From contig CBDUTA010000002.1 of NCBI GenBank assembly GCA_965369785.1, positions 1-48,415 on the forward strand: a stretch of 48,415 nucleotides of DNA, written 5' to 3'. The position numbers were made by a program, and so were the translations under genes. Positions 1,162-40,479 of this stretch are shown one piece after another (within the stretch, counting starts at the first letter, position 1; the number at the start of each line of letters is the position of its first letter). Origin of the DNA: an uncultured bacterium. GTDB taxonomy: Bacteria; Acidobacteriota; UBA6911; RPQK01; JADFOI01. The notes under the pieces are model-generated. The model worked only from the letters and a program-made list of their open reading frames with translations. It did no database searches and was not told the DNA's origin.

Positions 1162-1171
1162 GGAGGAATCC

Positions 1172-4810: not shown

Positions 4811-4834
4811 ATATGAGAATTGGAGTGTCGTGAC

Positions 4835-6325: not shown

Positions 6326-6595
6326 TGTCTCGTCCCATGAATACCATGATGTTTGCTGATGGGGCTTGCGAGGGGAGGTCAAGGAGCGAGGAGGAGGCGA
6401 TGCAGGGACATCGGCGACGACGAGCGACACAGAGATCGTCCGCAACCTCCATCAGCCCGAAGGGTGGCGGCGGGACGGCATCGATTTCTTTGTCGCTCCT
6501 CCTCCACGATGCACAGACATCGCGTCGTCGTCGCTTCGCGAACTCGACGCCGTCGCGCTCGCCACAAACGTCACCGTATTTATGGAACGAGACAC
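6325..6595. mobile_element. 271-bp non-autonomous element (MITE family A) with 19-bp imperfect terminal inverted repeats and a TA target-site duplication
   Basis: The left end is GTGTCTCGTCCCATGAATA (6325-6343). The right end is TATTTATGGAACGAGACAC (6577-6595), whose reverse complement GTGTCTCGTTCCATAAATA matches 17 of 19 positions. TA flanks both ends (6323-6324 and 6596-6597). No protein-like ORF lies inside. Confidence 0.75.
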
Positions 6596-6607
6596 TAACT
6601 AGAGAAA

Positions 6608-7153: not shown

Positions 7154-7162
7154 GTAAGTGTT

Positions 7163-7906: not shown

Positions 7907-7930
7907 AAGAAGCTCGGAGATTTCCAAGGA

Positions 7931-11009: not shown

Positions 11010-11024
11010 CTCGTACACTTGCTT

Positions 11025-11690: not shown

Positions 11691-11716
11691 CCAAGGAGGA
11701 TCGATTGGGTGGGTCT

Positions 11717-14758: not shown

Positions 14759-14830
14759 TTTTTGATTTCACAGACTCTGCTGAACACAAGGGTTTAGGGG
14801 AGGAAATTTCAACAGGCAAGCAGACACAAC

Positions 14831-16276: not shown

Positions 16277-16279
16277 CTG

Positions 16280-16801
16280 ATGTCTGTTCCGCTGTTCCTG
16301 GGGATCTTCGAAGATGAAGATGATGTGATTCAAGCAACTAGGGCTACTCGTGCCCTGGGCTATGAAATTTTCGACGTTTACACTCCCTACGCCGTGCATG
16401 GCCTGGATGAGGCCATGGGATTGAAGCCAAGCCGATTGACCTGGATCTGCCTTGCCTTTGCTTTGGGTGGTCTCCTGGGAGCCAGCGTGGCACAGTTTTG
16501 GATTGGTTCCATTGACTGGCCTCTCAATGTGGGTGGGAAGCCCTTCAACTCTCTACCTGCCTACCTGCCTGTGATGTTTGAAATGACGGTTCTCATCGGT
16601 GGATTGGGCACAGTTTTGGCCCTGCTGATTCGGGCCGGCCTGTATCCCGGAAAACCGGCACGGGTGGTTCATGAAGAGGTGACGAACGATCGGTTTGTTT
16701 TGGCGCTGGAACAAAAGGACTCCTCATTCGATCCAGCAGTGTTGTGTGGCCTCTGGGAGCAGTATCACGTCGTGGACACCAAACAACTGGTGGAGGAATA
16801 G
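16280..16801 (+). CDS. actD: Alternative Complex III small membrane subunit (DUF3341-like)
   Basis: The N-terminus GIFEDEDDVIQATRATRALGYEIFDVYTPYAVHGLDEAMG is typical of ActD. It starts 3 nt after actC. Confidence 0.8.
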   Translation: MSVPLFLGIFEDEDDVIQATRATRALGYEIFDVYTPYAVHGLDEAMGLKPSRLTWICLAFALGGLLGASVAQFWIGSIDWPLNVGGKPFNSLPAYLPVMFEMTVLIGGLGTVLALLIRAGLYPGKPARVVHEEVTNDRFVLALEQKDSSFDPAVLCGLWEQYHVVDTKQLVEE

Positions 16802-16802
16802 G

Positions 16803-17369
16803 GTGAAGAAAGTTATTTTTTTGACGTGTGTTGTGCTGATGGGACTTTTTGTGCTCCAGCAGATCCTGGGATACTCTCCCGACAGACGAAACTGGGAGTT
16901 TCTTCCAGATATGGTCCGATCCAGGGCCTACCGATCCCAATCCTCCAGCCCCCACTTTTCAGATGGAAGGATGCAGCGGGAACCAGTCGCGGAGACGATT
17001 GCCCGGGGGTACATGCCCTTTGACTACGGAACTTCAGTGCAAGAGAGCGAGCGTTCCGGTCGGGAACTGCAAAGTCCTTTTGATGCCCGGCAACCCGCGG
17101 AGTTGGAACGTGGAGAGGCCATCTGGAAGACTTATTGTCAGGTCTGCCACGGCACGGAAGGTGAGGGAGACGGACCCGTGACAAGGCGGGGTTATCCCCC
17201 GCCGCCCTCACTGCTCTCTGGACGGGTGGAGGCCATGAAGGAGGGTCAGATCTTCCACATCATCACTTTCGGAAACGGAAACATGCCTTCCTACGGCTCC
17301 CAGATAGATCGTCGGGACCGCTGGCAGGTGGTGCAGCACCTCCGCCGGCTGCAGGAGAATCAGCAATGA
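16803..17369 (+). CDS. actE: Alternative Complex III monohaem cytochrome c subunit
   Basis: GTG 16803 is preceded by GGAGGA at 16792-16797. The product has a signal-like N-terminus (VKKVIFLTCVVLMGLFVL) and a single CQVCHG haem site. The ORF-track start at 16695 overlaps actD. Confidence 0.8.
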   Translation: MKKVIFLTCVVLMGLFVLQQILGYSPDRRNWEFLPDMVRSRAYRSQSSSPHFSDGRMQREPVAETIARGYMPFDYGTSVQESERSGRELQSPFDARQPAELERGEAIWKTYCQVCHGTEGEGDGPVTRRGYPPPPSLLSGRVEAMKEGQIFHIITFGNGNMPSYGSQIDRRDRWQVVQHLRRLQENQQ

Positions 17370-18541
17370 GTCAGGATTTGCCCGTATTGCAAGTGCCCAA
17401 TTCGATCAGGAAGCTGCTGCTGAGCATGATGGTCTTCGGCCTGGGAGTTTTCATCATGGGCGTCCTTCTCAGGCCAGAGCGCATCTGGCCCAATTTCCTG
17501 ATTGCAGAATTTTACCTCTTGAGCCTTGGACTGGGAGCGACCTTTTTCATTGCCGTTCTCTACGTGTCCAATGCCGGGTGGGGTGTGGCCATTCGACGGG
17601 TGCCCGAAGCCATCACCTCAGTGCTTCCCGTAGCGGGCTTTGGGGGGGCCGTTTTGATTTTTGGAATACACACCCTGTATCACTGGAGCGATGAGGCGGC
17701 CGTTGCCCAGGATGAAATCATCCAAGCCAAGAGTGCCTGGCTCAATGAAGAATTTTTTATTGCCAGACTGGTGCTGTATTTCGCTATCTGGATCGTGATG
17801 AGCAAAATGATCGTGAGGAACTCGGTGCGACAGGACACCGACGGTGACATGATCCACACTCGAAGAAACGTGCGTAATTCCGCCATTTTTCTCATCGTGG
17901 GATCCTTTACCGCATGCCTGGTCAGTATCGATTTACTGATGTCACTTCAGCCTCACTGGTACAGCACTATATTTGCCTGGATGAGCTTATCGGGAATGTT
18001 CCTGAGTGGTCTGGCCATGATCAGCGTGTTTGTGGTCATCCTGAGAGGGATGGGCTGTGGGCATGTCTTTACCACCGATCACTTGCACGATCTGGGACGA
18101 CTGATGCAGGCCTTTAGTTTTTTCTGGGTGTACATGTGGGTTTCTCAACATATGCTCATCTGGTACTCCAATATTCCCGAAGAAACCTCCTATTACATTT
18201 TTCGGCATTTTGGAGGCTGGGGGTCACTGTCATTTTTGAATGTACTCTTGAATTGGCTTATTCCGTTTGTGGTGCTGTTGCCAAAGCGCAACAAGCGAGA
18301 TGACAAGCTCATGCTTCAGATGGCAACGGTCATTCTGATAGGACGTTGGTTGGACCTGTACATCATGGTCATGCCGGCCACCTTTGGCGAAGAGCCAACA
18401 CTGGGCCTGTGGGAAATTGGTCCAATGATAGGGGCCCTGGCACTGTTCTTCTGGCTGGTGTTTCGAGCCCTGGGCAAGCAAGCTCTGGTGCCGATCAAGG
18501 ATCCTTATCTCAGCGAGAGTCTGCCTCAGGAAGGGCATTGA
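17366..18541 (+). CDS. actF: Alternative Complex III second NrfD-like membrane subunit
   Basis: A 391-aa polytopic membrane protein overlaps actE by 4 nt. Confidence 0.8.
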   Translation: MSQDLPVLQVPNSIRKLLLSMMVFGLGVFIMGVLLRPERIWPNFLIAEFYLLSLGLGATFFIAVLYVSNAGWGVAIRRVPEAITSVLPVAGFGGAVLIFGIHTLYHWSDEAAVAQDEIIQAKSAWLNEEFFIARLVLYFAIWIVMSKMIVRNSVRQDTDGDMIHTRRNVRNSAIFLIVGSFTACLVSIDLLMSLQPHWYSTIFAWMSLSGMFLSGLAMISVFVVILRGMGCGHVFTTDHLHDLGRLMQAFSFFWVYMWVSQHMLIWYSNIPEETSYYIFRHFGGWGSLSFLNVLLNWLIPFVVLLPKRNKRDDKLMLQMATVILIGRWLDLYIMVMPATFGEEPTLGLWEIGPMIGALALFFWLVFRALGKQALVPIKDPYLSESLPQEGH

Positions 18542-18604: not shown

Positions 18605-18750
18605 GGGAACACTAAAGCCTTCCCGATTCTCACCGATATGATCCATGGTCCCTGTTTGCTCATGAAAGGTGAAGTCCACCCAGTCTTGCTCTCACAGATC
18701 ATTTTGGTACCTGACCTCACAACAGGCTGGCACCGGTTGGTTTCTGTAGA

Positions 18751-18947
18751 GCCCGGATTATGCATAGGTTCTTGTCACGAAAGGGGTGGCGCCGACCTGA
18801 GTGCGCTGCGCCACGCGCGACTGAGGCCCCCGCAAACGTACTGTAGGGTACGTTGAGGAGGCCGGGGGCACCCGCTTGCGGGTCGCGCAACGCTGGCAGG
18901 ACGGATGATTTCGCCGCTGCAGTAGAGAATTTATGCATAATCCGGGC
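18751..18947. mobile_element. MITE family B, full copy 1 (197 bp), with perfect 16-bp TIRs GCCCGGATTATGCATA
   Basis: The left TIR is at 18751-18766 and the right TIR TATGCATAATCCGGGC at 18932-18947. The interior holds GC-rich hairpins (ACCCGC-TT-GCGGGT and ACGTAC..GTACGT). The element ends 20 nt before the HDOD gene start. Confidence 0.8.
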
Positions 18948-18967
18948 TAAGGTAAAGGAGATAAACG

Positions 18968-20044
18968 ATGAATGCTCAGATGCAAGCGAGTCTCAAGAAT
19001 TGTAAGACTTTGCCGACTTTGCCGGGTGTTGCCATTCAAATCCTTGAGTTGTGCCAACAGGAGGATCTTAACCTTTCCAGAATGGCCGATCTCATCGGGA
19101 AAGATCCCGCTCTCAGTGCCAAAGTGCTGCAAATAGTGAACTCACCTTATTACGCTCTTTCTCGCCAGGTCGCCACGCTTGATCATGCCGTGTCGCTCCT
19201 GGGTATTCATGCTGTACGGACGGTGGCGTTAAGTTTTTCGATTATGCGTGGTCTGCTTCGAGATGAGGCCAGTGGTTCCGGTCTGTCCTGTTTCTGGCGT
19301 CGTGCCCTCATTTCTGGAGTTGCTGCTCGCTGCTTGGGCCAGTCCAACCAGGAAGTGCTTTTTCTGGCAGCGATGCTCCAGGATATCGGCATGCTCGCTT
19401 TGAGAGCAGTTTTGCCCGGGCAGTATGAAAAGCTTCTCGCGGGATCGGAGAACGACCATTTGCGTCTTGAGGAACTGGAAAAGGAGGAGCTGGGTGTGGA
19501 CCATGCAGAAGTGGGCGGCTGGCTGGTCCAGCACTGGCATTTGCCGGAAATATTTGAATTTTCACTCCGAGGCAGTCATGATCCCGACCCAGATCAGGTC
19601 CCCTCCGAGTTGCTACCGATTGTGCAAATCGTAGCACTCTCAGGCTTATTCGCGGACATCTGGATCATCGAAGATCCCGTCGTTGCTACTCAGTACGCTG
19701 GAGCTGCTGCAAAAAAAATGCTGGGCATGGAACAGGAGGACGTTCGAGGACTGGTCATGGCAATTTCCGAGGCACTCCCGGAAATTTCCGTCCTATTCGA
19801 AATTGACCTGGGTGACTCGGATAGTCTCGATGAAATCCTTGAGAGAGCGAAAGAAGCCCTGATGACTGCCGGCGTGCTGACCGCTCAACATGCCCAGGAT
19901 ATCCAAAAGGCGGCCGACAAGGCGACTTCTGACAAGTTGAACTCTGATGTAATATGGGTTAAAGAACTGACTACTGATGACGAGGACTCAACGGAACCGT
20001 TGAAAGGGAACCTTTCGACACGATCTAGCCCGGATGTCGGCTGA
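18968..20044 (+). CDS. HDOD-domain signalling protein
   Basis: The N-terminus LPTLPGVAIQILELCQQEDLNLSRMADLIGKDPALSAKVLQIVNSPYYALSRQVATLDHAVSLLG is a typical HDOD signature. AAGGAG lies 8 nt upstream of the ATG. Confidence 0.8.
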   Translation: MNAQMQASLKNCKTLPTLPGVAIQILELCQQEDLNLSRMADLIGKDPALSAKVLQIVNSPYYALSRQVATLDHAVSLLGIHAVRTVALSFSIMRGLLRDEASGSGLSCFWRRALISGVAARCLGQSNQEVLFLAAMLQDIGMLALRAVLPGQYEKLLAGSENDHLRLEELEKEELGVDHAEVGGWLVQHWHLPEIFEFSLRGSHDPDPDQVPSELLPIVQIVALSGLFADIWIIEDPVVATQYAGAAAKKMLGMEQEDVRGLVMAISEALPEISVLFEIDLGDSDSLDEILERAKEALMTAGVLTAQHAQDIQKAADKATSDKLNSDVIWVKELTTDDEDSTEPLKGNLSTRSSPDVG

Positions 20045-20143: not shown

Positions 20144-21532
20144 TTAGCGCCGGTTGACAATGTCCAGAGCAGCCACACGGTAGGCTTCGGCAAGAGTTGG
20201 AAAATTGAAGATATTTTCTACGAAGACGTCGACTTGGCTCTTCGCCAGAAGTCCCATCTGGCCCACATGGATTAATTCCGTCGCTCCTTCGCCAACGATC
20301 TGTATTCCCAGGAGTTTTTTCCCCTCAGGGTCGGCGACCATCTTGAGGAGGCCCTCTTTGAGTCCGGCGATCTGGCCGCGCGCCACTTCATCGAAGCGAG
20401 CCCGGCCGACCATGGTTTCGCCGTGGCGTTCGATAGCTTCTTTCTCGGTGATCCCAACGCTGGCCATTTCAGGGATGGTGAAGATGCCGATAGGGATGGT
20501 CTCAGGAGAACTGGGCAAATCAATTCCCGTGGCATGGCGAACTGCCCGGCGCCCCTGTTCCATGGCCGAGGAGGCCAGGCCGGGAGGTCCGACCACATCC
20601 CCCACTGCGTAAATATGAGGGACAGACGTCCGGCAGTATCCATCCACGCTCAGCAGTCCCCCCTCCGTGGCCTGTAACCCAGCAGCTTCAATCTTCAGAT
20701 CGGCCAGGTTAGCAACCCGTCCCAAAGCAACCAGCATCTTCTCACTCTTCACCGTCTCACCACTTTCCAGGGTCGTTACCACCTGGGACCATCCGTCCCA
20801 TTGGACTTGCTTGACTGTTTCTTGTCCCAGGTATCGACCACCGTGTTCTCGAAAGCTTTGCAGAAACTGGTCGGTGAGTTCCCGATCCATAAAACCGAGG
20901 GGACGTGCTCGTTGGTCGATCACCGTCACCTTCACGCCCAGAAGGGAGAAGATGGATGCGTACTCACTGGCAATGACCCCCCCACCCAAGATGGTGAGGG
21001 ATCGAGGGAGGTAGATCATAGAGAGAATGGAATCACTGTCCAGGATATGCTCATGGTCTATCGGTATACTCTCACCAATGCGCGGCACCGATCCTGTAGC
21101 TATCACAATAGTGTCGGCTTTGAGAGATTGCCGGGATCCGTCCACGGCCGTGACGCTGACGATCCGATCGGAGAGGAATTGAGCTCGGCCATGAAATCGG
21201 TTGATCCCATTTCGGTCCAACTGACCACTGATGTAAGCGACATGGGCTTCAATGACCTGGTTCATCCGCGTCATGAGGGTTCGGACTTGCAGCTCTTTAC
21301 GAAGCTGAAACTCAAACACATGGGCATGGCGCTTGAGCCGGGCCACATCCAGGGCACTTTCTCGCAGAGTTTTACTGGGGATGGTACCCCGATGAACACA
21401 GGTGCCTCCCACTGCGCGCTCTCGCTCAATAATGGCAACGTGTTTACCGATTTTGGCCCCTTGGATGGCGGCCTTTTGTCCACCCGGTCCACTGCCAAGA
21501 ACAACAATGTCGTAACAAGTCACTGTACTCAT
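20144..21532 (-). CDS. sthA: Soluble pyridine nucleotide transhydrogenase-like flavoprotein (SthA/UdhA type)
   Basis: An FAD-binding GSGPGG motif is present. The site GGTCVHRGTIPSK has a single Cys rather than the CxxxxC of lipoamide dehydrogenase, as in SthA. The 462-aa product has the class-I disulfide-reductase fold layout. Confidence 0.7.
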   Translation of the reverse strand: MSTVTCYDIVVLGSGPGGQKAAIQGAKIGKHVAIIERERAVGGTCVHRGTIPSKTLRESALDVARLKRHAHVFEFQLRKELQVRTLMTRMNQVIEAHVAYISGQLDRNGINRFHGRAQFLSDRIVSVTAVDGSRQSLKADTIVIATGSVPRIGESIPIDHEHILDSDSILSMIYLPRSLTILGGGVIASEYASIFSLLGVKVTVIDQRARPLGFMDRELTDQFLQSFREHGGRYLGQETVKQVQWDGWSQVVTTLESGETVKSEKMLVALGRVANLADLKIEAAGLQATEGGLLSVDGYCRTSVPHIYAVGDVVGPPGLASSAMEQGRRAVRHATGIDLPSSPETIPIGIFTIPEMASVGITEKEAIERHGETMVGRARFDEVARGQIAGLKEGLLKMVADPEGKKLLGIQIVGEGATELIHVGQMGLLAKSQVDVFVENIFNFPTLAEAYRVAALDIVNRR

Positions 21533-22422
21533 AAGCCCATCGAATCTGTTATTTGGAGGATTTCTTCCCGCTTTTCCAGAAGCGCGCTCACGTCCTCCGG
21601 GTAAAGATTCAAGTCGGTAATGACTGGATGGTCTCGCACTTTTTCCTCGTCGAAGGGTTTTTCAGCACTGGTGTGAGTGGCCAGGTGGCTGGCAAGGCAG
21701 GTGATTCTCACCTCCTGGACAAACGAGGACGCTTCACAGTAATCCCTATAATAGAGAATGGATTCCTTGACTGGATCCGGAAGCGCCCATTTGCGGGCGA
21801 TGAGCGCCCCCAGCTTCACATGAAACTCGTCCATGAGAGTGAACAGATCATCTCTTCTCAGTCGGACATCCAGGCTCTTCTCCACCTCTGCGATGGCAGG
21901 AAGTGCAACAGATTTTCCAATACTGTGAAGGAGCCCGCAAAGGAAGGAGCTTTCCTGATTTTGACGGCGCATGCGGGCGATCTCTTTGGCGTATGCCGCA
22001 CTGACTACAGAATGAAACCACAGTTGCTTCATTTCGGCTTTGTAATCGGGCAGGGCAAAGAGGCGATTTTTGACGCAAACAGCAAAGGCAATTTCGCGCA
22101 GCCGGTTGAAACCTAACCGAGCGATTGCTTGCTGAAGAGACACGATGGCCACTCGGCCACCGAAGGCGGCCGAGTTGGCTATTTTAAACAGGTGTCCGGC
22201 CAGGGCCTGATCCCTGTGAATGAGCCTACAGAGAGTCGAAGCGTCTGTCTGGTCGTTGTTGGTGAGGCTTAAAACTTGGTTGGCGATTTGGGGCAACAGT
22301 GGAAGCTGGAAGTGACCCTTCACAATTCGCTGGGTGAGGGCAGCTCGGAATTGAACCATGGTTTGGACGTCCGTTACCTCAGGCGTGTGTTGTGATTCGG
22401 GCGGACCTTTGCCTTTTAGCAT
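21529..22422 (-). CDS. HDOD-domain signalling protein
   Basis: LPLLPQIANQVLSLTNNDQTDASTLCRLIHRDQALAGHLFKIANSAAFGGRVAIVSLQQAIARLG is an HDOD signature. Its stop overlaps the sthA start (ATGA). Confidence 0.8.
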   Translation of the reverse strand: MLKGKGPPESQHTPEVTDVQTMVQFRAALTQRIVKGHFQLPLLPQIANQVLSLTNNDQTDASTLCRLIHRDQALAGHLFKIANSAAFGGRVAIVSLQQAIARLGFNRLREIAFAVCVKNRLFALPDYKAEMKQLWFHSVVSAAYAKEIARMRRQNQESSFLCGLLHSIGKSVALPAIAEVEKSLDVRLRRDDLFTLMDEFHVKLGALIARKWALPDPVKESILYYRDYCEASSFVQEVRITCLASHLATHTSAEKPFDEEKVRDHPVITDLNLYPEDVSALLEKREEILQITDSMGL

Positions 22423-22461
22423 CGCTAGTTACTTTTTCGGTCCAATCAGGAAAATTCTTTA

Positions 22462-22494
22462 GACCGCATTATGCATAGGCTGTCGTGGCAAAGC
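22462..22494. repeat. Degenerate single end of MITE family B, preceded by TA
   Basis: GACCGCATTATGCATAGGCTGTCGTGGCAAAG aligns with the copy-1 left end GCCCGGATTATGCATAGGTTCTTGTCACGAAAG. Confidence 0.55.
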
Positions 22495-26989: not shown

Positions 26990-29077
26990 ATGACCGAGAC
27001 AAGCTCGCAGATTCAGACCTACGAATTACCGAAAATACCCTCGAACCCTGAGGCTATTCTTGCCCTATTTGTGATGGGAATCATTGGGGTCATGTTGATT
27101 CCTATGCCATCGGTAATGCTGGACTTCCTCATTGCCTTGAATATCACACTGTCCGTAACCACCCTTCTGGTATCTCTTTATATTTCTGAACCTCTTCGTT
27201 TCTCGGTTTTCCCCACCCTTCTCCTACTCCTTACTTTGTTTCGACTGTCCCTTAACGTAGCCAGTACCCGGCTGATTCTCTTGCATGGAAATGAAGGGTC
27301 TTCTGCGGCGGGACGCGTGATTGAGTCCTTCGGTCAATTTGTGGTCGGTGGCAACTTTGTTGTGGGTGGCGTCATTTTTCTGGTCCTGATTGCCATCCAA
27401 TATGTCGTGATCAACCATGGCGCAGTGCGTGTTTCCGAGGTGACAGCTCGCTTCACACTGGATGCAATGCCAGGAAAACAGATGAGTATCGATGCCGACC
27501 TCAATACGGGGGTCATTGATGATCAGGAAGCGCGCAAAGGTCGAGAGCATATCGCTAAGGAAGCCGAGTTCTACGGATCCATGGACGGAGCCGTGCGGTT
27601 TACCCAGCGCGATGCTGTCGCCGCCATCATTATTACTTTGATCAATATCCTGGCTGGATTTGCTATTGGAGTGCTTCAGCAGGGCGTGCCCATGGCAGAG
27701 GCCTTCGTAACCTATACGATTTTGACCATTGGGGACGGCCTTGTCAGCACGATACCCTCTTTGATGATCTCAGTAACAGCCGCCATTATGACGACCCGTG
27801 CAGCCTCTGAGTCGAATTTGGGTGGAGAAGTCGGCCAACAATTATTCGGTGATTCCAGGCCCATTGCCGCGGCCGCAGGCTTGCTTCTACTCATGGCGCT
27901 GGTTCCGGGCTTACCCTTTATGGCCTTTTTCTTCCTCAGTGCGGCTGCTGGTTCGATCGCCTGGTTCGCTCGTCGTCAGGAGGCGGTCGTCGCTGAGCCT
28001 GTTGAAATGGTGGAAGCTGGAGAGAATCAGGAACTCGCCCAGGAAGAGCAGATCGGCTCCTTGATGCGAGTCGATCCATTGGGTTTGGAACTGGGGTATC
28101 AGCTCATCCAGTTGGTGGACAACAAACAAGGAAGTCATTTTCTCTCCAAAGTCCGGTCGATTCGTCACCAACTTGCTCTGGATTACGGAGTCATTATTCC
28201 CCGGGTGCACATTACCGACAATCTCCAACTGAAACCAAAGGAGTATCGTATTCTGCTCAAGGGAGCTGAGGTGGCGCGCAGTGAGTTAATGCCGGGAGCT
28301 GTTATGGCCATCAATCCGGGACAGGCGACCGGTGAGATCGATGGTGTTTCCACCCAGGAGCCAACCTTCAACCTACCCGCCTTGTGGATTCAACCCGAAC
28401 AACGAGAAAGAGCTCAGTTGGAGGGCTACACCGTTGTTGATAATACCACCGTGATGGCCACCCATCTGACGGAGGTGATCAAGACGAGTATCCACCAGTT
28501 GCTGGGACGTCAAGAGCTTGCGACCTTGATTGACACGGTCAATGAGACTCACCCCAAGGTTGTAGAAGAGCTGATTCCTAAGGTTTTGAGTGTGGGACAG
28601 GTCCAGAAAGTATTGCAGAACTTGCTTCGGGAGCGAGCTTCCGTCCGTGACATAGTGACCATTTTAGAAACTCTCGCCGACTATGCGCCCTTGACTAAAA
28701 ACGTCACCCTCCTGACGGAATACGTCCGCCAGTCACTTGGGCGTTCCATCTGTCAGTCCCACTTGAACGAGCAAGGAGAGCTGAAGGTTTTCACGTTGTC
28801 CCCGGATTTGGAAAAAATCTTCACTGATGCAGTGACGGTCACCGAGCAGCACAGCTATTTGGCCCTCGATCCTGAAGTTGCCGGTCCAATCTTGGAGCGG
28901 ATGAAAAACACTATTGAACAAAGCACTTTTGAAGGTTATCCGGTCTTGCTCACCGCCACCGGGATTCGGCTTCACGTCAAGCAATTCTCAGAGCATCTGA
29001 TGCCCACTCTGGTGGTTCTTTCCCACAATGAGATCCCTCTTCATGTCAAGGTCATTTCTATAGGGGAGGTGGAATAA
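26990..29077 (+). CDS. flhA: Flagellar export apparatus protein FlhA
   Basis: The 695-aa product has conserved FlhA segments (FVVGGVIFLVLIAIQYVVINHGAVRVSEVTARFTLDAMPGKQMSIDADL). Confidence 0.97.
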   Translation: MTETSSQIQTYELPKIPSNPEAILALFVMGIIGVMLIPMPSVMLDFLIALNITLSVTTLLVSLYISEPLRFSVFPTLLLLLTLFRLSLNVASTRLILLHGNEGSSAAGRVIESFGQFVVGGNFVVGGVIFLVLIAIQYVVINHGAVRVSEVTARFTLDAMPGKQMSIDADLNTGVIDDQEARKGREHIAKEAEFYGSMDGAVRFTQRDAVAAIIITLINILAGFAIGVLQQGVPMAEAFVTYTILTIGDGLVSTIPSLMISVTAAIMTTRAASESNLGGEVGQQLFGDSRPIAAAAGLLLLMALVPGLPFMAFFFLSAAAGSIAWFARRQEAVVAEPVEMVEAGENQELAQEEQIGSLMRVDPLGLELGYQLIQLVDNKQGSHFLSKVRSIRHQLALDYGVIIPRVHITDNLQLKPKEYRILLKGAEVARSELMPGAVMAINPGQATGEIDGVSTQEPTFNLPALWIQPEQRERAQLEGYTVVDNTTVMATHLTEVIKTSIHQLLGRQELATLIDTVNETHPKVVEELIPKVLSVGQVQKVLQNLLRERASVRDIVTILETLADYAPLTKNVTLLTEYVRQSLGRSICQSHLNEQGELKVFTLSPDLEKIFTDAVTVTEQHSYLALDPEVAGPILERMKNTIEQSTFEGYPVLLTATGIRLHVKQFSEHLMPTLVVLSHNEIPLHVKVISIGEVE

Positions 29078-30372
29078 TGAAAATGAAGACTTACCAAACA
29101 GAGTCGGTTCCCAAGGCACTGAAACAGATCAGGAAGGATCTGGGGCCAAAGGCCACCATTCTGCACACCCAAAGGACTCCCAAGCACAAGTTGCTGGGCT
29201 TACTCCGCGGCTTCACCTACACGATTACTGCCGCCTCGGATTCGAACGCAAAAGAAGAGAGCGTTCAGCAAGAATCCCCTGAAACCTACGAGGCCGCCAC
29301 GACGCCCTTAGCGCTCCCGCAAACCAAACCGACCACCGATTTCAAAGAGAATGGCTCCCAGGCAACCCCTCTAACCTCCGGTTCCTGGATGAATGCTGAT
29401 TCTGACAGTGCCGCTGCCAGCCTCACTGCACACCTGCAAAAGCTCAGTGCCGACATCCAGGAAATGAAACTGATCGTGGGTTCCAGGAAACTACTGTTGC
29501 CACCGCTGCAGTATCCCCACAATGATTTGCTGTGTGAACAATTTTGGCGCCTGACTGGCAATGGACCCGGTCCTAAGTCCGACTGGAAGAAAACACAGCT
29601 ATTGTTTGAGGAATTTCAACATCTCCAAGGGCAGGGATTGGACGAAAACATCATTTCGTCACTTCTTCAGCTTGCCGCGCGGGATCTCTCGCCTGAAAAA
29701 GACACAAAATCGCAGTTGAGGCAGCGTTTGAACACAGCCCTGGCAGAGTTGATCAGAACCTCTCCGATTACGGAATCCCCAAGCTGTGCAACGCGTGCGA
29801 TATTTTTGGGGCCCACTGGGGTAGGGAAAACGACAACCATCGCGAAGTTGGCGGCCATTCTGGCTTTGGGAGAGAGGAAAAAAGTTCAGCTCATCACGCT
29901 GGATACCTACCGAATCGCTGCTGCCGAGCAGCTCAAGACCTACGGTGAAATTATTGGGGTTCCGGTGCGAGTCGTTTCCTCTGTCGCTGAGTTGGATCAG
30001 GCTCTTTCAGAGTCTGGTGAACGGGACAATATATTAATCGATACCATTGGCCATAGTCACAAAACGGTTTCTAAGTTCAGGGAGTTGTCTTCTTACTTGT
30101 GCGGTAACCGAAGTGTGGAGAAGCATCTCGTCTTGAGTACCGCAACCAAACAGGAAGACTTAAGCGAAATGATCGCGAGTTTTGAAGTCTTTGAACCCGA
30201 CAAACTGGTTTTCACAAAAGTGGACGAGTCTTCAGCTTTTGGAACGATTGCAAATGCATTGATTCGTACCGGCAAGCCGCTTTCTTATCTAACTAATGGG
30301 CAGGCGGTGCCGGAAGATCTCCTTGTTCCCACACCAACATCGGTAGGGGATTTACTGATTCCCCTGAATTGA
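29077..30372 (+). CDS. flhF: Flagellar SRP-type GTPase FlhF
   Basis: The C-terminal NG domain carries GPTGVGKTTTIAKLAA, DTYRIAA and DTIGHS. The start overlaps the flhA stop (TAATG). Confidence 0.9.
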   Translation: MKMKTYQTESVPKALKQIRKDLGPKATILHTQRTPKHKLLGLLRGFTYTITAASDSNAKEESVQQESPETYEAATTPLALPQTKPTTDFKENGSQATPLTSGSWMNADSDSAAASLTAHLQKLSADIQEMKLIVGSRKLLLPPLQYPHNDLLCEQFWRLTGNGPGPKSDWKKTQLLFEEFQHLQGQGLDENIISSLLQLAARDLSPEKDTKSQLRQRLNTALAELIRTSPITESPSCATRAIFLGPTGVGKTTTIAKLAAILALGERKKVQLITLDTYRIAAAEQLKTYGEIIGVPVRVVSSVAELDQALSESGERDNILIDTIGHSHKTVSKFRELSSYLCGNRSVEKHLVLSTATKQEDLSEMIASFEVFEPDKLVFTKVDESSAFGTIANALIRTGKPLSYLTNGQAVPEDLLVPTPTSVGDLLIPLN

Positions 30373-30382
30373 AGGCGCAAGT

Positions 30383-31222
30383 ATGTTTGATCAGGCAGCC
30401 GCAGTTAGATCGATAGCACAACAAGGAGGGGGACCGGTGTCTGGACTGGGTTACGATACAGGTTGTCAAGTCATTGCGGTAACCAGCGGCAAAGGAGGTG
30501 TTGGAAAGACGAATGTGGTGGTGAATGTCTCCATTGCGCTGCAGCGAGCTGGTCAGAAAGTGGCGATTCTGGATGCCGATTTTGGACTTGCGAACGTCGA
30601 TGTGTTTTTTGGGCTGACCCCAACCTATCACGTGGGGCACGTCCTGGAAGGCAGCCGCACTCTGGAGTCAATCGTCCAAGAGGAAGCCGAGGGTGTTCAC
30701 ATTATACCGGCCAGTTCGGGTATTCAGGAACTGACCGAGATCGACGATGAACACCGGGAAAGGATCTTCCTTCAGCTGAACGAAATTCTGAACCACTACG
30801 ACTTTCTTCTCATTGATACGGCAGCGGGGATCTCTGACAACGTCATGAGTCTTCTCACTGTCTCTCGCACAGTGGTGGTGGTCTCCATGCCGGAACCCAC
30901 TGCGATGCTGGATGCTTATGCACTTATTAAGGTCTTGCTCAGGAGAAACAAGGCCAAAGAGGTTTTGCTTCTCATGAACTCTGTTCGAAACAGACATGAG
31001 GCGCATCAGGTGTTTCAGAAGTTGGCTCATGTAGTTGAGAGATACCTGGGTCAAACGGTCAAGTTGCTCGGCTTTGTCCTGAAAGATGAAAAGGTCTCCC
31101 AAGCCGTGTGCCAACAGGTCCCTCTTCTGGTGAGCCACCCCGGTACACGAGTCAGTCGGTGTTTTACTGAGATTGCAGACTCCTTACTGAGTGCTTCGTT
31201 CTGTAAATACGATGAGGTTTGA
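30383..31222 (+). CDS. flhG: MinD/ParA-type flagellar number regulator FlhG (FleN/YlxH)
   Basis: It has the deviant Walker A SGKGGVGKTN. The position between flhF and fliA fits. Confidence 0.88.
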   Translation: MFDQAAAVRSIAQQGGGPVSGLGYDTGCQVIAVTSGKGGVGKTNVVVNVSIALQRAGQKVAILDADFGLANVDVFFGLTPTYHVGHVLEGSRTLESIVQEEAEGVHIIPASSGIQELTEIDDEHRERIFLQLNEILNHYDFLLIDTAAGISDNVMSLLTVSRTVVVVSMPEPTAMLDAYALIKVLLRRNKAKEVLLLMNSVRNRHEAHQVFQKLAHVVERYLGQTVKLLGFVLKDEKVSQAVCQQVPLLVSHPGTRVSRCFTEIADSLLSASFCKYDEV

Positions 31223-31330: not shown

Positions 31331-32098
31331 ATGACATCTAATGCCTTAAAGACAAGAGCGTATCAGCAGGACGACGAAAGAGAGCAGCTCATCCTCCAGC
31401 ACCTTCCGCAGATCAAGTACATCGCTCAGAGGATTGCAGTGGGATTGCCGGCCCACGTGGAGGTGGAAGATCTGGTTAGTGCCGGTGTCATTGGTCTAAT
31501 GGATGCGCTGGAAAAGTTCGACAAAGGCAAGGGAGTTCAGTTCAAAACCTACGCAGAGGTCAGAATCCACGGGGCAATTCTAGATAGCCTGCGGGTACAG
31601 GATTGGGCACCGCGTTCGCTGCGAAGAAAGATCAAAGAAGTCGGAAAGGCTTATGCCAAAGTAGAGCAGCAGCTAGGACGTGCGGCAAGCGATGAGGATA
31701 TTGCCCGGGAGTTGGGGGTTGAAATCGGGGCATTTCATGTACTGCTGGATCAGCTCAAGGGTCTCAACATTGGACATTTCCAGTTTGCAGGAAAGGAGAA
31801 CAGGGGATTGGATGCCGACAATGTTGCTCTCCAATATACTTCCTCCCAGGAAGTGGATGTCCCATTTCAGCTCTGTCTGAGACAAGAATTACGGGGTATC
31901 TTGGCGGAGCTGATTGAGCAGCTGCCTGAGCGAGAACGACTGGTCATCACGCTGTACCACTACGAGGAACTGACTATGAGAGAGGTGGGCGAGGTCCTGG
32001 GTGTTAACGAGTCTCGCATCTGTCAGCTACATACACGGGCCATGCTGCGCTTGAGAGGCAAGTTGCAGAGGAGATTGAAAAGGAAAGAGCCCAAGTGA
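31331..32098 (+). CDS. fliA: Flagellar sigma factor sigma28 (FliA/WhiG family)
   Basis: Sigma70 regions 2, 3 and 4 are recognisable (DLVSAGVIGLMDALEKFD, YHYEELTMREVGEVLGVNESRICQLH). Confidence 0.92.
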   Translation: MTSNALKTRAYQQDDEREQLILQHLPQIKYIAQRIAVGLPAHVEVEDLVSAGVIGLMDALEKFDKGKGVQFKTYAEVRIHGAILDSLRVQDWAPRSLRRKIKEVGKAYAKVEQQLGRAASDEDIARELGVEIGAFHVLLDQLKGLNIGHFQFAGKENRGLDADNVALQYTSSQEVDVPFQLCLRQELRGILAELIEQLPERERLVITLYHYEELTMREVGEVLGVNESRICQLHTRAMLRLRGKLQRRLKRKEPK

Positions 32099-33105
32099 CG
32101 GAAAACATACTCTCTCAGGATGAAGTCAACGCACTTCTGCAAACGATCGATCAGCCGACTCCTCCAGTTGAAACAGCAACAGGCTCAGAAGCTGCTTCGG
32201 AGGAAGAGTCCCTTGAAGAAACCGTTGAAGAAGCTGCTTCACTATTATCCAGTAAGGACGTTTTTCCGAGACTCAGATCACAAACCCTTACGGAGGAATT
32301 GCAAGCGGCCCTGGCCCTTGTGCATGATGGGTTCGCTTATAGCATCGGATCCACGCTCTCGGTAGGCCTGAGAGCCCAGACGCACGTCAAACTGGAGAGT
32401 ATGCAGGCGCTTTCCCACGATGAATTTCTTGAGGAACTCCCGGAACCTTCTTCTGTCTGGGCTTTACGCCTGGAATCCCGCAGAGCACAGATCATGGTTT
32501 GCTTTCAGCCTTTACTGGTTCACACCATGATCGACTTCTTGATGGGTGGAGCAGGCCTCATTCCGAAAGGTCGGGAGAGCATTACCGACTTGGATCAGGC
32601 GGTGATCCGAACCGCGGTTGAGTCGTTTTGCAAGGAGCTCAACAACGCCTGGCAGCGGATGCTGGAATTTGACTTAGAAATCGATTCTCATGAAACCAGA
32701 CCCGGATTTCTCCATATTCGTTCACCCAATCAGCAGGTTATTCTGATCACACTCAGTATGATCGTCGGCCAAACTGAAGGACAGGTGTTTTTAGGGATTC
32801 CGGAATCGGTGATTGATGAACTTTCGGAGCGACTGAATCTCCAGAGTCAAACACGTAACGAACAAGGGGGCGAAGAGTCCATCAAGAAAGTCAAAGAGGT
32901 GGTGTTGGATGTGTCGAGCACTCTGGAGGCAAATCTTTCTGAAACGATGATTACTGCTAGTGAGCTACTCAGAGTTAGAGTGGGCGATGTCATCAAATTA
33001 GACCACCGAATCACTGATCCGATATCCATTACCGTCAATGGTTTGAACAAGTTTTCAGCGAATGTTGTTGCTTCCAATAAAAAAAGGGTCATCGAGATCG
33101 TATGA
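32095..33105 (+). CDS. fliM: Flagellar motor switch protein FliM
   Basis: The N-terminal LSQDEVNALL is a CheY-P-binding-type motif, and a C-terminal SpoA-like domain is present. The GTG start overlaps the fliA stop. Confidence 0.9.
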   Translation: MTENILSQDEVNALLQTIDQPTPPVETATGSEAASEEESLEETVEEAASLLSSKDVFPRLRSQTLTEELQAALALVHDGFAYSIGSTLSVGLRAQTHVKLESMQALSHDEFLEELPEPSSVWALRLESRRAQIMVCFQPLLVHTMIDFLMGGAGLIPKGRESITDLDQAVIRTAVESFCKELNNAWQRMLEFDLEIDSHETRPGFLHIRSPNQQVILITLSMIVGQTEGQVFLGIPESVIDELSERLNLQSQTRNEQGGEESIKKVKEVVLDVSSTLEANLSETMITASELLRVRVGDVIKLDHRITDPISITVNGLNKFSANVVASNKKRVIEIV

Positions 33106-33117
33106 GAGGGGACGACC

Positions 33118-33642
33118 ATGGGATCAGACAAGAAGGCTGCTGAGGGAGAAGTTGTAGAGCAGGCTCAGGAAACAGAGGATGTCCAGGCCACTGAAGGTCA
33201 AGCGGAAGAAGCTGAAGAGACCACCGATTCTCCGTCGCAGGAGACCGCAGGATCAGACAAGAAGGCTGCTGAGGGGGAAGTTGTAGAGCAGGCTCAGGAA
33301 ACGGAGGATGTCCAGGCCACTGAAGGTCAAGCGGAAGAAACTGAAGAGACCACCGATTCTCAGTCGGGGGAAGAGGATCTAACGAATATCCAGCGCATTC
33401 TGGACATCGAACTTCCATTGACAGTCACGTTCGGGGCCACACGGAGATCGTTGCGCGATGTTTTGCACCTCGCTCCAGGATCCAGATTCGAACTGAACAA
33501 CAGAGCTAATGAACCGGTGATTGTGACCGTTAATAATAAGATATTCGCGCGCGGCGAGGTGGTGGTGGTGGACGGACACTATGGGATCCGAATTCAGGAG
33601 ATCGAGACCGCTGCTGAGCGCATTGCTTCCCTTGGAGACTGA
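33118..33642 (+). CDS. fliN: Flagellar motor switch protein FliN with a duplicated acidic N-terminal extension
   Basis: The C-terminal part ILDIELPLTVTFGATRRSLRDVLHLAPGSRFELNNRANEPVIVTVNNKIFARGEVVVVDGHYGIRI is a canonical FliN SpoA domain. Confidence 0.92.
   Translation: MGSDKKAAEGEVVEQAQETEDVQATEGQAEEAEETTDSPSQETAGSDKKAAEGEVVEQAQETEDVQATEGQAEETEETTDSQSGEEDLTNIQRILDIELPLTVTFGATRRSLRDVLHLAPGSRFELNNRANEPVIVTVNNKIFARGEVVVVDGHYGIRIQEIETAAERIASLGD
33121..33367 (+). repeat. 129-nt (43-codon) in-frame tandem duplication, about 1.9 copies, inside fliN
   Basis: Unit 1 is 33121-33249 and unit 2 starts at 33250. There are only 3 mismatches over the first ~112 nt. Confidence 0.9.
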
Positions 33643-33643
33643 T

Positions 33644-34105
33644 ATGGACTATTTCACAGCAATCAAACCCGGATGGTTTGTTGTTTTCTCCCTGATGGCA
33701 TCTTGCCTGGTGCAGCTGTCTTTCTTTGCCGTTCTGATGAGGCGTTGTAATCGGAGAACCTCACGCATTCTTGGCCAGCTGGAGCAGGATAGGAAGCAAA
33801 TTCTGAGCGACCTGAAGGAGCAGTTCAATGAACTGCAGAAATCAAATAATGAATCTTCCGACCAGATGGATCAAAGAGTCGGTGAGGCTGCTTTACAGCA
33901 GCCGTTACCTTCTGAAACTTCCTCTTCTCAATGCTTCGGAATCGACAAGAAGCGCCAGGTTTTTGGTCTGGCCGAAAAGGGGTTGAGTCCAAAAGACATC
34001 TCACGCCGGTTAGAAATATACCAGGGAGAAACTGAGCTTGTGTTGAGCTTGAGAGGATACCTGTCTGGTCGAGGGGCTAATGATGAACCGGAGATTTTGC
34101 AGTAA
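33644..34105 (+). CDS. Small membrane-anchored coiled-coil protein, DUF2802-like (flagellar-cluster-associated)
   Basis: ATG 33644 lies 1 nt after the fliN stop, with GGAGA upstream. The product has an N-terminal TM helix, a charged helical middle and a C-terminal GLSPKDISRRLEIYQGETELVLSL helix-turn-helix-like tail. The family assignment is from memory of the motif only. Confidence 0.55.
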   Translation: MDYFTAIKPGWFVVFSLMASCLVQLSFFAVLMRRCNRRTSRILGQLEQDRKQILSDLKEQFNELQKSNNESSDQMDQRVGEAALQQPLPSETSSSQCFGIDKKRQVFGLAEKGLSPKDISRRLEIYQGETELVLSLRGYLSGRGANDEPEILQ

Positions 34106-34880
34106 CTCTTTGTGTACTCACAGTAAATTGGGATGGCAGTTGTTGAGCAGTGGGTATTTTGTGCAAGGAGAGTGGTACTGTTCTATTCCCTGTCTGAGAA
34201 GAGCCGTGCGCTCATTGGTGCGACACTTCTTACTTCGCCCCAAGGAGCAGTCTCCGCCTGCGCTGCGAAAGACGCGTATTGGCGCCATCTTAGTGAGCAG
34301 GCGGTTGATCACACAAAATCAGCTCAAGGCTGCATTGGAGAAGCAGCGAAGAGAAGGGAAGCTTCTCGGCGAGTGTTTGCGAGAAATGCATTACATCTCT
34401 TGTCGCGATTTGACTATTGCCCTGAGCGAACAGCAGGGGTTGCCCTGGATGGAAGAGATCACTCCCTCGGTAAGCGATAGAGTGCTCAACTTCATTCCCA
34501 AGAAGTTGTGTCAGGTGTTCAAGGTCTTTGCCGTAGGATACCGCTCCCAGAACCAGGCCTTGATGGTCGCTTTAGGGGGACCATCGGAACAGACACTCAT
34601 CCCCCTGCTTCGGAGAATGCTGGAGTGTGATGTGTATGCCTTCGTCAGTGATGACGAGAAGGTCTCGCAGCTCATTAAGCGATATGTCGAGCCCAAGCCA
34701 GACGAGGATACTCACAAGGCTTACTCTGTTGGACAGGATCCGGTGAGTGTCACTCAATCCATTATGGATGCTGGAAGCTCTCTTGGTTCGCGGCGGATTC
34801 TGATCGATTCCTTCAAGGATACGCTGTGGGTGCGTTATGGCATGAAACAGAATTTCCGAAATCTCTTTCTAGAGTTTTGA
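34080..34880 (+). CDS. Orphan MshEN / T2SS-protein-E N-terminal-domain protein with an N-terminal 4-Cys motif; putative c-di-GMP receptor
   Basis: The Cys pattern is C-x4-C-x21-C-x3-C at residues 7-38. It is followed by RIGAILVSRRLITQNQLKAALEKQ, RREGK and LLGECLREMHYISCRDLTIALSEQ. The C-terminal part matches the GspE-N pattern (LNFIPKKLCQVFKVFAVGY..ALMVALGGP). ATG 34083 is an alternative start. Confidence 0.7.
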   Translation: MMNRRFCSNSLCTHSKLGWQLLSSGYFVQGEWYCSIPCLRRAVRSLVRHFLLRPKEQSPPALRKTRIGAILVSRRLITQNQLKAALEKQRREGKLLGECLREMHYISCRDLTIALSEQQGLPWMEEITPSVSDRVLNFIPKKLCQVFKVFAVGYRSQNQALMVALGGPSEQTLIPLLRRMLECDVYAFVSDDEKVSQLIKRYVEPKPDEDTHKAYSVGQDPVSVTQSIMDAGSSLGSRRILIDSFKDTLWVRYGMKQNFRNLFLEF

Positions 34881-34990
34881 GTGATCAGATGGGGTGTCAA
34901 TCGGGTTCCAGGCCGCATTTCTCACACCAGGTGGTGGCGGAACGGCGGAAGGGCCGATGCAGGAGAGCGGGTGTAAAACATGCGGGGTTA

Positions 34991-35181
34991 GCCCGGACTA
35001 TGCATAAATTTTCTACTGTGGCGCCCAAACCATCCGCCCTGACTGCGTTGCGCTCGCTCGGCCTCCTCGACGTACCGTACAGTACGTCTGCGGTGCCCGA
35101 CCCGCAAGCGGGTGCCCCCGCGCGCCTGGTCAGGACGGCGTTTTCGGCGCCTCGCTACGAAAACCTATGCATAATCCGGGC
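34991..35181. mobile_element. MITE family B, full copy 2 (191 bp), inverted relative to copy 1, flanked by TA/TA
   Basis: The TIRs are GCCCGGACTATGCATA (34991-35006) and TATGCATAATCCGGGC (35166-35181). TA sits at 34989-34990 and at 35182-35183. The interior aligns with the reverse complement of copy 1. Confidence 0.8.
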
Positions 35182-35264
35182 TAGAGAAAGTGTTCACAGG
35201 AAGTCACCAGAGAGCGGAGGTTTTCTCCACAAAAGGGAATCAAGGGGACAAATTTTCCGCCACA

Positions 35265-35283
35265 GTAGGCAGAATTTGCCTAC
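35265..35283. promoter_or_regulatory. Perfect 19-bp palindrome GTAGGCA-GAATT-TGCCTAC upstream of the flgF sigma54 promoter; candidate activator site
   Basis: The arms are 7 bp each. The centre is about 76 nt upstream of the predicted start site. Confidence 0.4.
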
Positions 35284-35323
35284 TGAAAGAGAATTCCCTC
35301 GTCCAAAGGGCCTGCCGCGGACT

Positions 35324-35338
35324 TGGAACCGTATTTGC
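35324..35338 (+). promoter_or_regulatory. Sigma54-type promoter, TGGAAC-CGTAT-TTGC, for flgF-flgI
   Basis: The GG-to-GC spacing is correct (GG 35325-35326, GC 35337-35338), with one deviation from TGGCAC. It lies 40 nt upstream of the flgF ATG. Confidence 0.55.
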
Positions 35339-35377
35339 ATATAGATTCTTGCTAATTGTCGACTGGAGAGATACGAA

Positions 35378-40170: not shown

Positions 40171-40479
40171 ATGAAGATTGATGGAAATGTGCCCTATGTC
40201 AACCCTGAGCAACTGAATGTCCAAGACAGTCAACAGAAAAAGAAGAATACCAAGGGGAATCAGTTACAGTCAGTGGATTCTGGAGAAGACAGGCTGGAGC
40301 TTTCGACTGATATTAGAAAAATTGAGTCCTACCAGAAAATAGCTCAAGAAGCCCCGGAAGTGAGAAAAGAACGAGTGAATGAGCTCAAGGAAAAAGTGGA
40401 CACGCAAACCTACGACATCAAAGCTGAGGAGGTCGCAGAATCGCTCATTAAGGGTAGTATCGTAGATGAACTGGCCTGA
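40171..40479 (+). CDS. flgM: Anti-sigma28 factor FlgM
   Basis: The 102-aa product has a C-terminus RKERVNELKEKVDTQTYDIKAEEVAESLI typical of FlgM. Confidence 0.85.
   Translation: MKIDGNVPYVNPEQLNVQDSQQKKKNTKGNQLQSVDSGEDRLELSTDIRKIESYQKIAQEAPEVRKERVNELKEKVDTQTYDIKAEEVAESLIKGSIVDELA

Follow-up and report, generated by a model that had tools for sequence, protein, structure and literature searches.

The MshEN domain and the control of flagella by cyclic di-GMP (c-di-GMP) are each well known, and no earlier account of the family of MshEN proteins described here, which is encoded in flagellar gene clusters, came up in the literature searched. MshEN domains bind c-di-GMP specifically, with dissociation constants from nanomolar to low micromolar, through contact residues R1, L2, G3, L17, L21 and Q24 of each of two motifs (Wang et al. 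2016, PMC5013675). The position-10 glycines of the motifs (G18 and G47 in MshE) are required for the helix turns, a relaxed form of the motif permits G, A or S at position 10, and the substitution G40I in MshE, at the motif-2 Gly, abolished binding (PMC5013675). The same domain also acts as a c-di-GMP switch on outputs other than ATPases, including NfrB and fusions with CheA, CheX and REC (PMC5013675; PMC8669469). None of the described fusions is reported from a flagellar cluster in the literature searched, and that search returned no paper tying MshEN, T2SSE_N or PF05157 to flagellar genes, FliM/FliN, the C-ring or Acidobacteria; the text and supplement of Wang et al. make no mention of Acidobacteria, zinc or a flagellar context (PMC5013675). 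Our understanding of c-di-GMP control of the flagellum comes almost wholly from Proteobacteria and Firmicutes, by way of PilZ brakes, FleQ/FlrA and FliI, and the control of motility in Acidobacteriota, which are abundant soil bacteria, is essentially unstudied. The present study concerns a 48,415-nt stretch of DNA from an uncultured member of the Acidobacteriota (assembly GCA_965369785.1, contig CBDUTA010000002.1, positions 1 to 48,415 of the forward strand; hereafter the window), in which a gene that we call X and a small partner gene upstream of it lie between fliN and flgF, where a preliminary description of the sequence had placed them.

The product of gene X contains a complete MshEN domain, consisting of an N-terminal four-helix bundle and an alpha/beta C subdomain (residues ~60-205), on a protein that has no ATPase. 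Our preferred reading, to which we assign a probability of about 0.5, is that X would be an accessory of the FliM/FliN switch complex that responds to c-di-GMP and that arose from the regulatory N-terminus of a secretion or pilus ATPase. The gene and its parts are as follows.

34080..34880, + strand: gene X, encoding a putative zinc-ribbon/MshEN/C-terminal-domain protein of 266 aa (open reading frame list, sequence, family alignments, AlphaFold2 (AF2) model)
34098..34193, + strand: C7-x4-C12-x21-C34-x3-C38 module, a putative Zn ribbon or treble clef, residues 7-38 (conservation, AF2)
34275..34433, + strand: MshEN_N c-di-GMP-binding module by match to NF053729, residues 66-118, composed of motif 1, RREGK and motif 2
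34437..34694, + strand: MshEN_C alpha/beta subdomain, residues ~120-205 (Pfam, TIGR02538, Foldseek)
34701..34877, + strand: C-terminal domain of beta-alpha-beta-beta-beta form, residues 208-266, with W250 and R252 conserved (AF2, hhalign, Foldseek)

Residues 66-118 read RIGAILVSRRLITQNQLKAALEKQ, RREGK and LLGECLREMHYISCRDLTIALSEQ, so that the two 24-residue motifs and the spacer of exactly five residues are present as first described. They match the NCBIfam model NF053729 (c-di-GMP_motif, MshE-related) over positions 1-53 of its 53 with 58.6 bits (E 3.9e-16; curated cutoff 38 bits), and this two-motif match is far beyond chance. Eleven of the 12 published contact residues are kept, comprising all six of motif 1 (R66, I67 as a conservative L-to-I change, G68, L82, L86 and Q89) and five of the six of motif 2 (L96, G97, L111, L115 and Q118), with L95 in place of the Arg that is R38 in MshE. 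Positions 2-145 of the PilB model TIGR02538 align with residues 67-212 of X and positions 480-626 of NfrB with residues 63-212, relatives P0003-P0008 carry precomputed PF05157 matches, and the family profile matches the N-domains of PilF, PilB and MshE in the PDB with E from 7e-45 to 6e-13.

An AF2 model of X, built from an alignment with eight homologues (predicted local distance difference test score (pLDDT) 82.3, predicted template modelling score (pTM) 0.79), places helices at residues 60-73, 79-92, 96-102 and 108-119, followed by the alpha/beta part to ~205, and adds an N-terminal module at 19-52 (hairpin 26-33, helix 36-52), a disordered linker at 56-63 and a C-terminal beta-alpha-beta-beta-beta unit at 211-265. 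The top Foldseek match of this model is c-di-GMP-bound MshE (5HTL_B; E 2.3e-7, target TM-score 0.79, root-mean-square deviation (rmsd) 2.9 Å across 139 columns), c-di-GMP-bound PilF GSPII-B is likewise a top match, and XpsE and PilB-N come next in the PDB; the alignments of X with the N-domains of MshE, PilF and XpsE span 137-148 columns. By the family profile and Foldseek matches together, X therefore holds the complete MshEN/N1E domain and not only the 53-residue motif. A profile and fold check for MshEN had been set beforehand, and both parts agreed, NF053729 scoring above its cutoff and the Foldseek fold being that of MshEN. The preliminary description had spoken of a stand-alone MshEN module, which is right as to the missing ATPase and too narrow as to extent, the protein comprising a full MshEN domain and a C-terminal domain.

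The lack of an ATPase in the 266-aa product, which had been noted from the start, is borne out by the open reading frame and by Pfam: X has no T2SSE or PF00437 match, and it stops at residue 266, ~55 aa past the MshEN domain. Its equivalog scores are far under their cutoffs (44.5 against 675 for the PilB equivalog model). No match to YcgR or to the PilZ domain, which is marked by the motifs RxxxR and D/NxSxxG, was found in X with Pfam or NCBIfam at E up to 1, and a DUF4388 match on residues 62-98 (E 0.056) was treated as cross-matching of the MshEN helices.

These features set X beside several described systems and apart from each of them. It shares with MshE of V. cholerae (VC0405, 5HTL) and PilF GSPII-B of T. 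thermophilus the motif pair, the bundle with its alpha/beta subdomain and 11 of 12 contacts; it differs from them in having no ATPase, in being flanked by a 4-Cys module and a 55-aa C-terminal domain, in the replacement of the turn glycines and the motif-2 Arg in the window copy, and in a context that is flagellar rather than pilus or secretion. The N1E domain of the T2SSE ATPases GspE, PilB and PilF aligns to X, and the C-terminal domain of X is weakly collinear with the start of their N2E, whereas the Walker A/B core and most of N2E are missing, so that X powers nothing and could serve only as a sensor or an adaptor. NfrB and the MshEN fusions with REC, CheA, CheX and HD-GYP provide precedent for MshEN on a non-ATPase output, but X has no fused catalytic or signalling output and its output must be protein-protein contact. 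A possible likeness to YcgR, MotI and FlgZ and to FleQ lies in the use of a small c-di-GMP receptor on the rotor/switch or in flagellar biogenesis; the fold of X is unrelated to theirs (no PilZ, no AAA+), and X sits within the early fliM-fliN operon, tied to FliN and a FipA-like protein.

A word-indexed search found 8 relatives of X, and an exhaustive profile search recovered 19,888 MshEN-containing proteins. Among the best 150 of these, 67 have the putative zinc ribbon, a complete MshEN domain and the ~55-aa C-terminal domain in a length of 240-350 aa, and the family of X thus comprises at least 67 clusters. Conservation was assessed in 45 diverse members with 19-51% identity to the window protein, all 45 of which match NF053729. 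The most conserved positions are C7, C12, C34 and C38 together with G68, G97, Q89, Q118, L82, L115 and L71, a basic residue at 64 and P122, P140, W250 and R252; by this ranking, the strongest constraint therefore falls on the presumed metal ligands and the c-di-GMP contacts. Gly occupies each position-10 turn site in 36 of the 45. Two subtypes can be told apart. In one, the window clade, Arg opens motif 1 and the first residue of motif 2 is non-basic; in the other, motif 1 opens with Pro, which the relaxed motif permits, an Arg stands two residues before it, and Arg or Lys opens motif 2. Where public records of the family are named, the name is "hypothetical protein" (HTZ90388.1, Alloacidobacterium sp.), and the genomes with names are all Acidobacteriota, namely five metagenome-assembled genomes (MAGs) and Alloacidobacterium (Terriglobia). 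A candidate from Myxococcales (L011) was rejected as a member, having an MshEN match alone and no flagellar neighbours.

The N-terminal C-x4-C-x21-C-x3-C arrangement of the preliminary description is a family trait, with C7, C34 and C38 invariant and C12 conserved in at least 90% of the 45 members. Its layout of a knuckle, a beta-hairpin and then W-Y-C-S-x2-C at the start of a helix is that of a putative metal-binding (Zn) module. The C..C...[FY]CSxxC pattern is one that we take to resemble a TRASH/FCS-type finger, a resemblance unsupported by profile scan: eight N-terminal segments of the family gave no YHS, TRASH or zf-FCS match in Pfam at E up to 10, and a single insignificant match to zf-FLZ (E 0.066). 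The C-terminal domain, modelled alone by AF2 with pLDDT 86, is collinear by hhalign with the start of N2E of the GspE/PilB ATPases, pairing the family's "ASEIRL..WVRL" with "ASDIHI..VRFRIDG" of N2E at a local P of only 0.033. Its best Foldseek geometry is with V. cholerae EpsE (1P9W; rmsd 2.1 Å over 45 columns, 20% identity, E 0.51), no match against the PDB having E below 0.09; a Pfam scan of the segments of two members (E up to 10) gave nothing usable, and the sequence profile search of the PDB gave noise. The domain may be left over from the first half of N2 in such an ATPase, which suggests that X originated as a truncated ATPase, and it probably forms the output or interaction surface of the protein.

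The neighbourhood of X in the window, described next, was compared with that of its relatives.

29077-30372, + strand: flhF (Pfam SRP54 match)
30383-31222, + strand: flhG (MinD/ParA-type FlhG orthologues)
32095-33105, + strand: fliM (Pfam FliM and FliMN_C matches for fliM and fliN)
33118-33642, + strand: fliN, stop codon 33640-33642
33644..34105, + strand: partner gene, 153 aa, DUF6115 by Pfam and FipA-like by architecture
33968..34054, + strand: DUF2802-like C-terminal motif of the partner, residues 109-137, GLAEKGLSPKDISRRLEIYQGETELVLSL, an ungapped Pfam match to profile positions 39-67
34080..34105, + strand: overlap of the partner gene and X, 26 nt shared
35324..35338, + strand: sigma-54-type -24/-12 element TGGAACCGTATTTGC (TGGAAC-N5-TTGC), 39 nt upstream of flgF, a consensus match only
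35378: start of flgF, separated from X by a spacer of 497 nt (34881-35377)

X stands directly after fliN, with or without the DUF6115 gene between them, in 14 of 18 distinct loci (the window, L001, L003, L006-L010, L012-L014, L017, L019 and L023), in relatives down to ~20% identity; five loci were added by a metagenome scan with a narrower alignment. Two more of the 18 (the P0025 locus and L016) are flagellar clusters with small insertions, and X follows fliN in every flagellar locus examined. Synteny of the gene pair with flagellar genes was the other check laid down in advance, and it is strong. Two layouts recur. Ten distinct loci (the window, L001, L003, L006-L010, L017 and L023) have the order flhA-flhF-flhG-fliA-fliM-fliN-DUF6115-X and, except for the truncated L017, run on into flgF-flgG-flgA-flgH; the core fliN-DUF6115-X-flgF is also found on three short contigs. 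The four others (L012, L013, L014 and L019) have the order flhA-fliA-fliM-fliN-X-(cheY-cheX)-flgF, without flhF/flhG and without DUF6115. As a separate observation, the position of the motif Arg, in motif 1 or in motif 2, switches between these two acidobacterial flagellar layouts. FliM/FliN are what the contexts of X have in common, and they therefore provide the best evidence for its physical partner.

Other arrangements were seen outside these layouts. The member at L015 (7001-7825), which has 0 motif mismatches, is flanked on one side by secD/secF and an unknown 207-aa gene and on the other by tatD. A paralogue subgroup occurs outside flagellar clusters at the P0085 locus (JGI 3300050046) and at L018 (5357-6855), which are syntenic with one another. 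The P0085 paralogue follows a FliN-like gene and a 455-aa fusion of REC, Trans_reg_C, FliM and FliMN_C, an OmpR-FliM fusion that is itself unusual; at L018 the paralogue follows a plain OmpR-type regulator and stands beside a divergent GGDEF gene. At the P0025 locus, a gene for an HDOD+HD protein separates the MshEN gene from fliN. Two HDOD-domain genes also border the flagellar cluster of the window on its upstream side (18968-20044 on the + strand and 21529-22422 on the - strand), and the window contains no GGDEF/EAL genes.

The partner gene begins 1 nt past the stop codon of fliN, five nt downstream of a GGAGA, and ends within X, as reported at the outset. This overlap implies translational coupling of the two genes; they overlap by ~5-26 nt in 8 of 11 further distinct loci with both genes and are separated by 13-46 nt in L017, L021 and L024. 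A Shine-Dalgarno-like GAGGGG lies ahead of X at 34071-34076, and the second ATG (34083) may therefore be the true start. The spacer downstream of X holds no Rfam family, no sigma-70-like promoter and no convincing terminator. The sigma-54-type element, located by a pattern search with one mismatch allowed, recurs at L001 (11022-11036), 51 nt upstream of an flgF whose product is 62% identical to that of the window, and suggests that the rod/ring operon is sigma-54 dependent. Given this element before flgF and the absence of a sigma-70-like promoter or clear terminator, X is apparently the final gene in an early flhA..fliN operon (flhA-flhF-flhG-fliA-fliM-fliN).

The product of the partner gene matches Pfam PF19610 (DUF6115) with 34.5 bits against a gathering cutoff of 27 (residues 42-136 on profile positions 42-133 of 134). 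Its match to PF10975 (DUF2802), on residues 109-137, has 15.8 bits and E 0.016, under the gathering cutoff of 33.5. The label DUF2802-like that it first received is thus formally superseded by DUF6115, although the resemblance is real and more informative than was recognized then, all 10 orthologues matching DUF2802 below threshold (best E 4.4e-4) and 9 of the 10 matching DUF6115. DUF2802 is the domain of FipA, the FlhF-binding polarity factor of gamma-proteobacteria, which has a short N-terminus on the outside, a single N-terminal transmembrane (TM) helix, a coiled coil in the cytoplasm and a conserved domain at the C-terminus, numbers 163 aa in V. parahaemolyticus, and is found only alongside FlhF/FlhG (PMC11620751). 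In VpFipA, DUF2802 covers residues 68-135, the same length as the 68-position model; G110, E126 and L129 are invariant, and G110 and L129 are needed for FlhF binding (PMC11620751). By inspection of its sequence, the partner has a TM helix at ~9-32, then RRCNRR, a heptad-rich coiled-coil region at ~41-80 and a C-terminal helix-turn-helix-like motif. Its G113, E129 and L132 fall on the positions of G110, E126 and L129 under a mapping through the Pfam profile that assumes no gaps; among the 10 orthologues G113 and E129 are invariant and L132 is conserved in at least 90%.

The partner also tracks FlhF/FlhG, 10 loci having all three and 4 loci none, in a sample that is small and phylogenetically non-independent. 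The likeness to FipA takes in the size (153 and 163 aa), the TM/coiled-coil/C-terminal layout and the company of FlhF/FlhG, with the G/E/L residues as putative counterparts under the ungapped mapping and the partner lying in the flhF-flhG-fliA operon region; the differences are that it passes the DUF6115 and not the DUF2802 threshold, belongs to another phylum, and is encoded after fliN by a gene overlapping an MshEN gene. A homologue search from the partner returned same-family orthologues only, none annotated as DUF2802 and one of them named, from an Acidobacteriota MAG. We regard the partner as FipA-like and not as FipA, and FlhF as its presumed target.

Under the preferred reading of X as a c-di-GMP-responsive accessory of the switch complex, the N-terminus of a type II secretion or type IV pilus ATPase would have shed the ATPase core and acquired the zinc ribbon while keeping MshEN (N1E) and probably a stub of N2E. 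One molecule of c-di-GMP would be clamped by both 24-residue motifs of the four-helix bundle, the bundle would be repositioned relative to MshEN_C, the C-terminal domain and the zinc ribbon, and the binding of X to FliM/FliN (SpoA-domain proteins) at the C-ring would thereby be altered. FliM and FliN are the presumed physical partners, and both the binding of c-di-GMP by X and the direction of its effect are matters that we infer. The expression of X from the early operon, its translational coupling and its FipA-like membrane partner lead us to lean toward an action on the initiation of assembly, on flagellar number or placement, or on C-ring composition rather than toward a late YcgR-type brake. 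A fuller and distinctly more tentative version holds that the ATPase N-terminus, co-opted in Acidobacteriota as a dedicated part of the flagellum, would dock on FliM/FliN and, with the FipA-like protein and FlhF/FlhG, would make flagellar initiation or placement directly dependent on c-di-GMP.

Several observations weigh against a c-di-GMP-responsive X dedicated to the flagellum. Both turn glycines are replaced, by R75 and H104, which the preliminary description had already pointed out, and the motif-2 Arg is replaced by L95; Pfam PF05157 (MshEN) reaches 16.3 bits on residues 120-203, under its gathering cutoff of 23.1; and with 4 mismatches in 22 to the relaxed motif the window protein is among the worst 7 of the 67 members scored. 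The closest relative, P0003 (51% identity), has Glu at the motif-2 Gly (position 3), and this change together with the degeneracy of X indicates that the constraint on binding may be relaxed in the X/P0003 subclade. The family members at L015 and L018 stand in non-flagellar contexts, the former being canonical, so the architecture of X is not exclusively flagellar, and the synteny counts are not phylogenetically independent, coming from essentially two or three clades. X might accordingly be read as a c-di-GMP-blind adaptor that uses the MshEN/N1E fold as an interaction module while its site decays in the window lineage, which we consider possible though on the unlikely side, and the same low standing applies to the role that such an adaptor would have, namely to hold the FipA-like protein, FlhF/FlhG or both on FliM/FliN while the C-ring is assembled. 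In motif 2 an Arg stands where a hydrophobic core residue is expected, which adds to the losses that speak for it, as does the presence of XpsE and of PilB-N/PilZ complexes among the structural neighbours; the fold has such an interaction role in the N1E of XpsE/GspE, which binds GspL, and in Xanthomonas PilB-N, which binds PilZ. The N1E of XpsE (X. campestris GspE) has the same fold with a degenerate motif and is the model for a ligand-blind interaction module, its loss of binding being explained by changes comparable to those in X and P0003 (R38G, G40L and others); but in XpsE 8 key residues are gone, Q61 and both motif glycines among them, while X loses one contact. An adaptor of this kind is disfavoured because the contact residues are the most conserved positions across the family, which is hard to explain without a ligand; the 11 of 12 direct contacts kept in the window copy, an NF053729 score 20 bits over the cutoff and a four-helix bundle modelled confidently by AF2 despite the missing glycines (pLDDT 85-92 over 71-120) speak against it as well. 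Binding of c-di-GMP is thus plausible for the family and genuinely uncertain for the window copy, and the earlier interpretation as a whole is partly supported.

The other two explanations keep the gene in the flagellar system and change its point of action. A YcgR-like brake or clutch, in which X with bound c-di-GMP would dock after assembly on FliM/FliN or FliG and slow or bias the rotation of the motor, with the FipA-like neighbour as a co-transcribed bystander, would suit the clade without FlhF/FlhG/DUF6115, where fliN precedes X and the switch-level signalling genes cheY-cheX follow it, and would parallel the known effectors YcgR, MotI and FlgZ, which act at the flagellar rotor/stator. 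We think it improbable, and more so than a ligand-blind adaptor, as X is last in an early operon and coupled to a membrane protein, while ycgR of E. coli is a late (class 3) flagellar gene, and as X has no PilZ domain and no YcgR similarity. That X instead regulates flagellar gene expression in a zinc-dependent way, perhaps as an anti-sigma factor or co-regulator for FliA or sigma-54, and is not associated with the motor, is very unlikely. X shares an operon with fliA and is closely followed by a sigma-54-type promoter, zinc-binding anti-sigma factors exist, and an OmpR-type response regulator accompanies one paralogue; but the N-terminus of X yielded no DNA-binding or ZAS-type motif and no Pfam match, and its tightest genomic link is to fliM/fliN and not to fliA. 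An anti-sigma role is disfavoured in particular because the cluster already has a FlgM-like anti-sigma-28 gene downstream (40171-40479; PF04316 in relatives).

The family of X consists of conserved unannotated genes that place a high-affinity c-di-GMP receptor fold in the fliM-fliN operon, and X is a concrete candidate for how Acidobacteriota couple the switch between motile and sessile life to the flagellum. It would extend the uses of MshEN to a non-enzymatic flagellar adaptor. On the fuller and more tentative version, X would found a structural class of its own among flagellar c-di-GMP effectors, the third beside PilZ proteins and the FleQ/FliI-type ATPases, and would link the regulatory parts of pilus-type systems and flagella in evolution. 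The partner suggests that FipA-like cofactors of FlhF occur well beyond gamma-proteobacteria, hidden as DUF6115, and such proteins bear on the anchoring of FlhF/FlhG in general.

Several further features of the window were recorded. Upstream of the flagellar cluster (1058-18541) are a NarG/H/I-type respiratory nitrate reductase (1058-7906), two major facilitator superfamily (MFS) transporters and an Alternative Complex III-like set (11019-18541) of cytochrome c7, molybdopterin/FeS, NrfD, ActD and cytochrome c proteins; the open reading frames at 6608-7153 and 17366-18541 have no Pfam match. A repeat element of ~195-200 nt with 25-nt terminal inverted repeats (TAGCCCGGAYTATGCATAR...) occurs at least twice, at 34989-35183 and 18749-18949, with a partial match at 22460-22478; five matches to the terminal repeat were found and 0 are expected by chance. 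The element is intergenic, resembles miniature inverted-repeat transposable elements (MITEs) or repetitive extragenic palindromic (REP) elements and has no Rfam match. It fills much of the X-flgF spacer, whose length at L001 is 248 nt, and a 172-aa open reading frame at 34826-35344 was set aside as a spacer reading frame overlapping this MITE-like repeat. Through a 129-nt tandem duplication within fliN (33121-33366; 1.9 copies at 96% identity), an acidic segment of 43 aa is repeated in the N-terminal extension of its product. These extensions of FliN vary greatly in length among related loci (170-317 aa).

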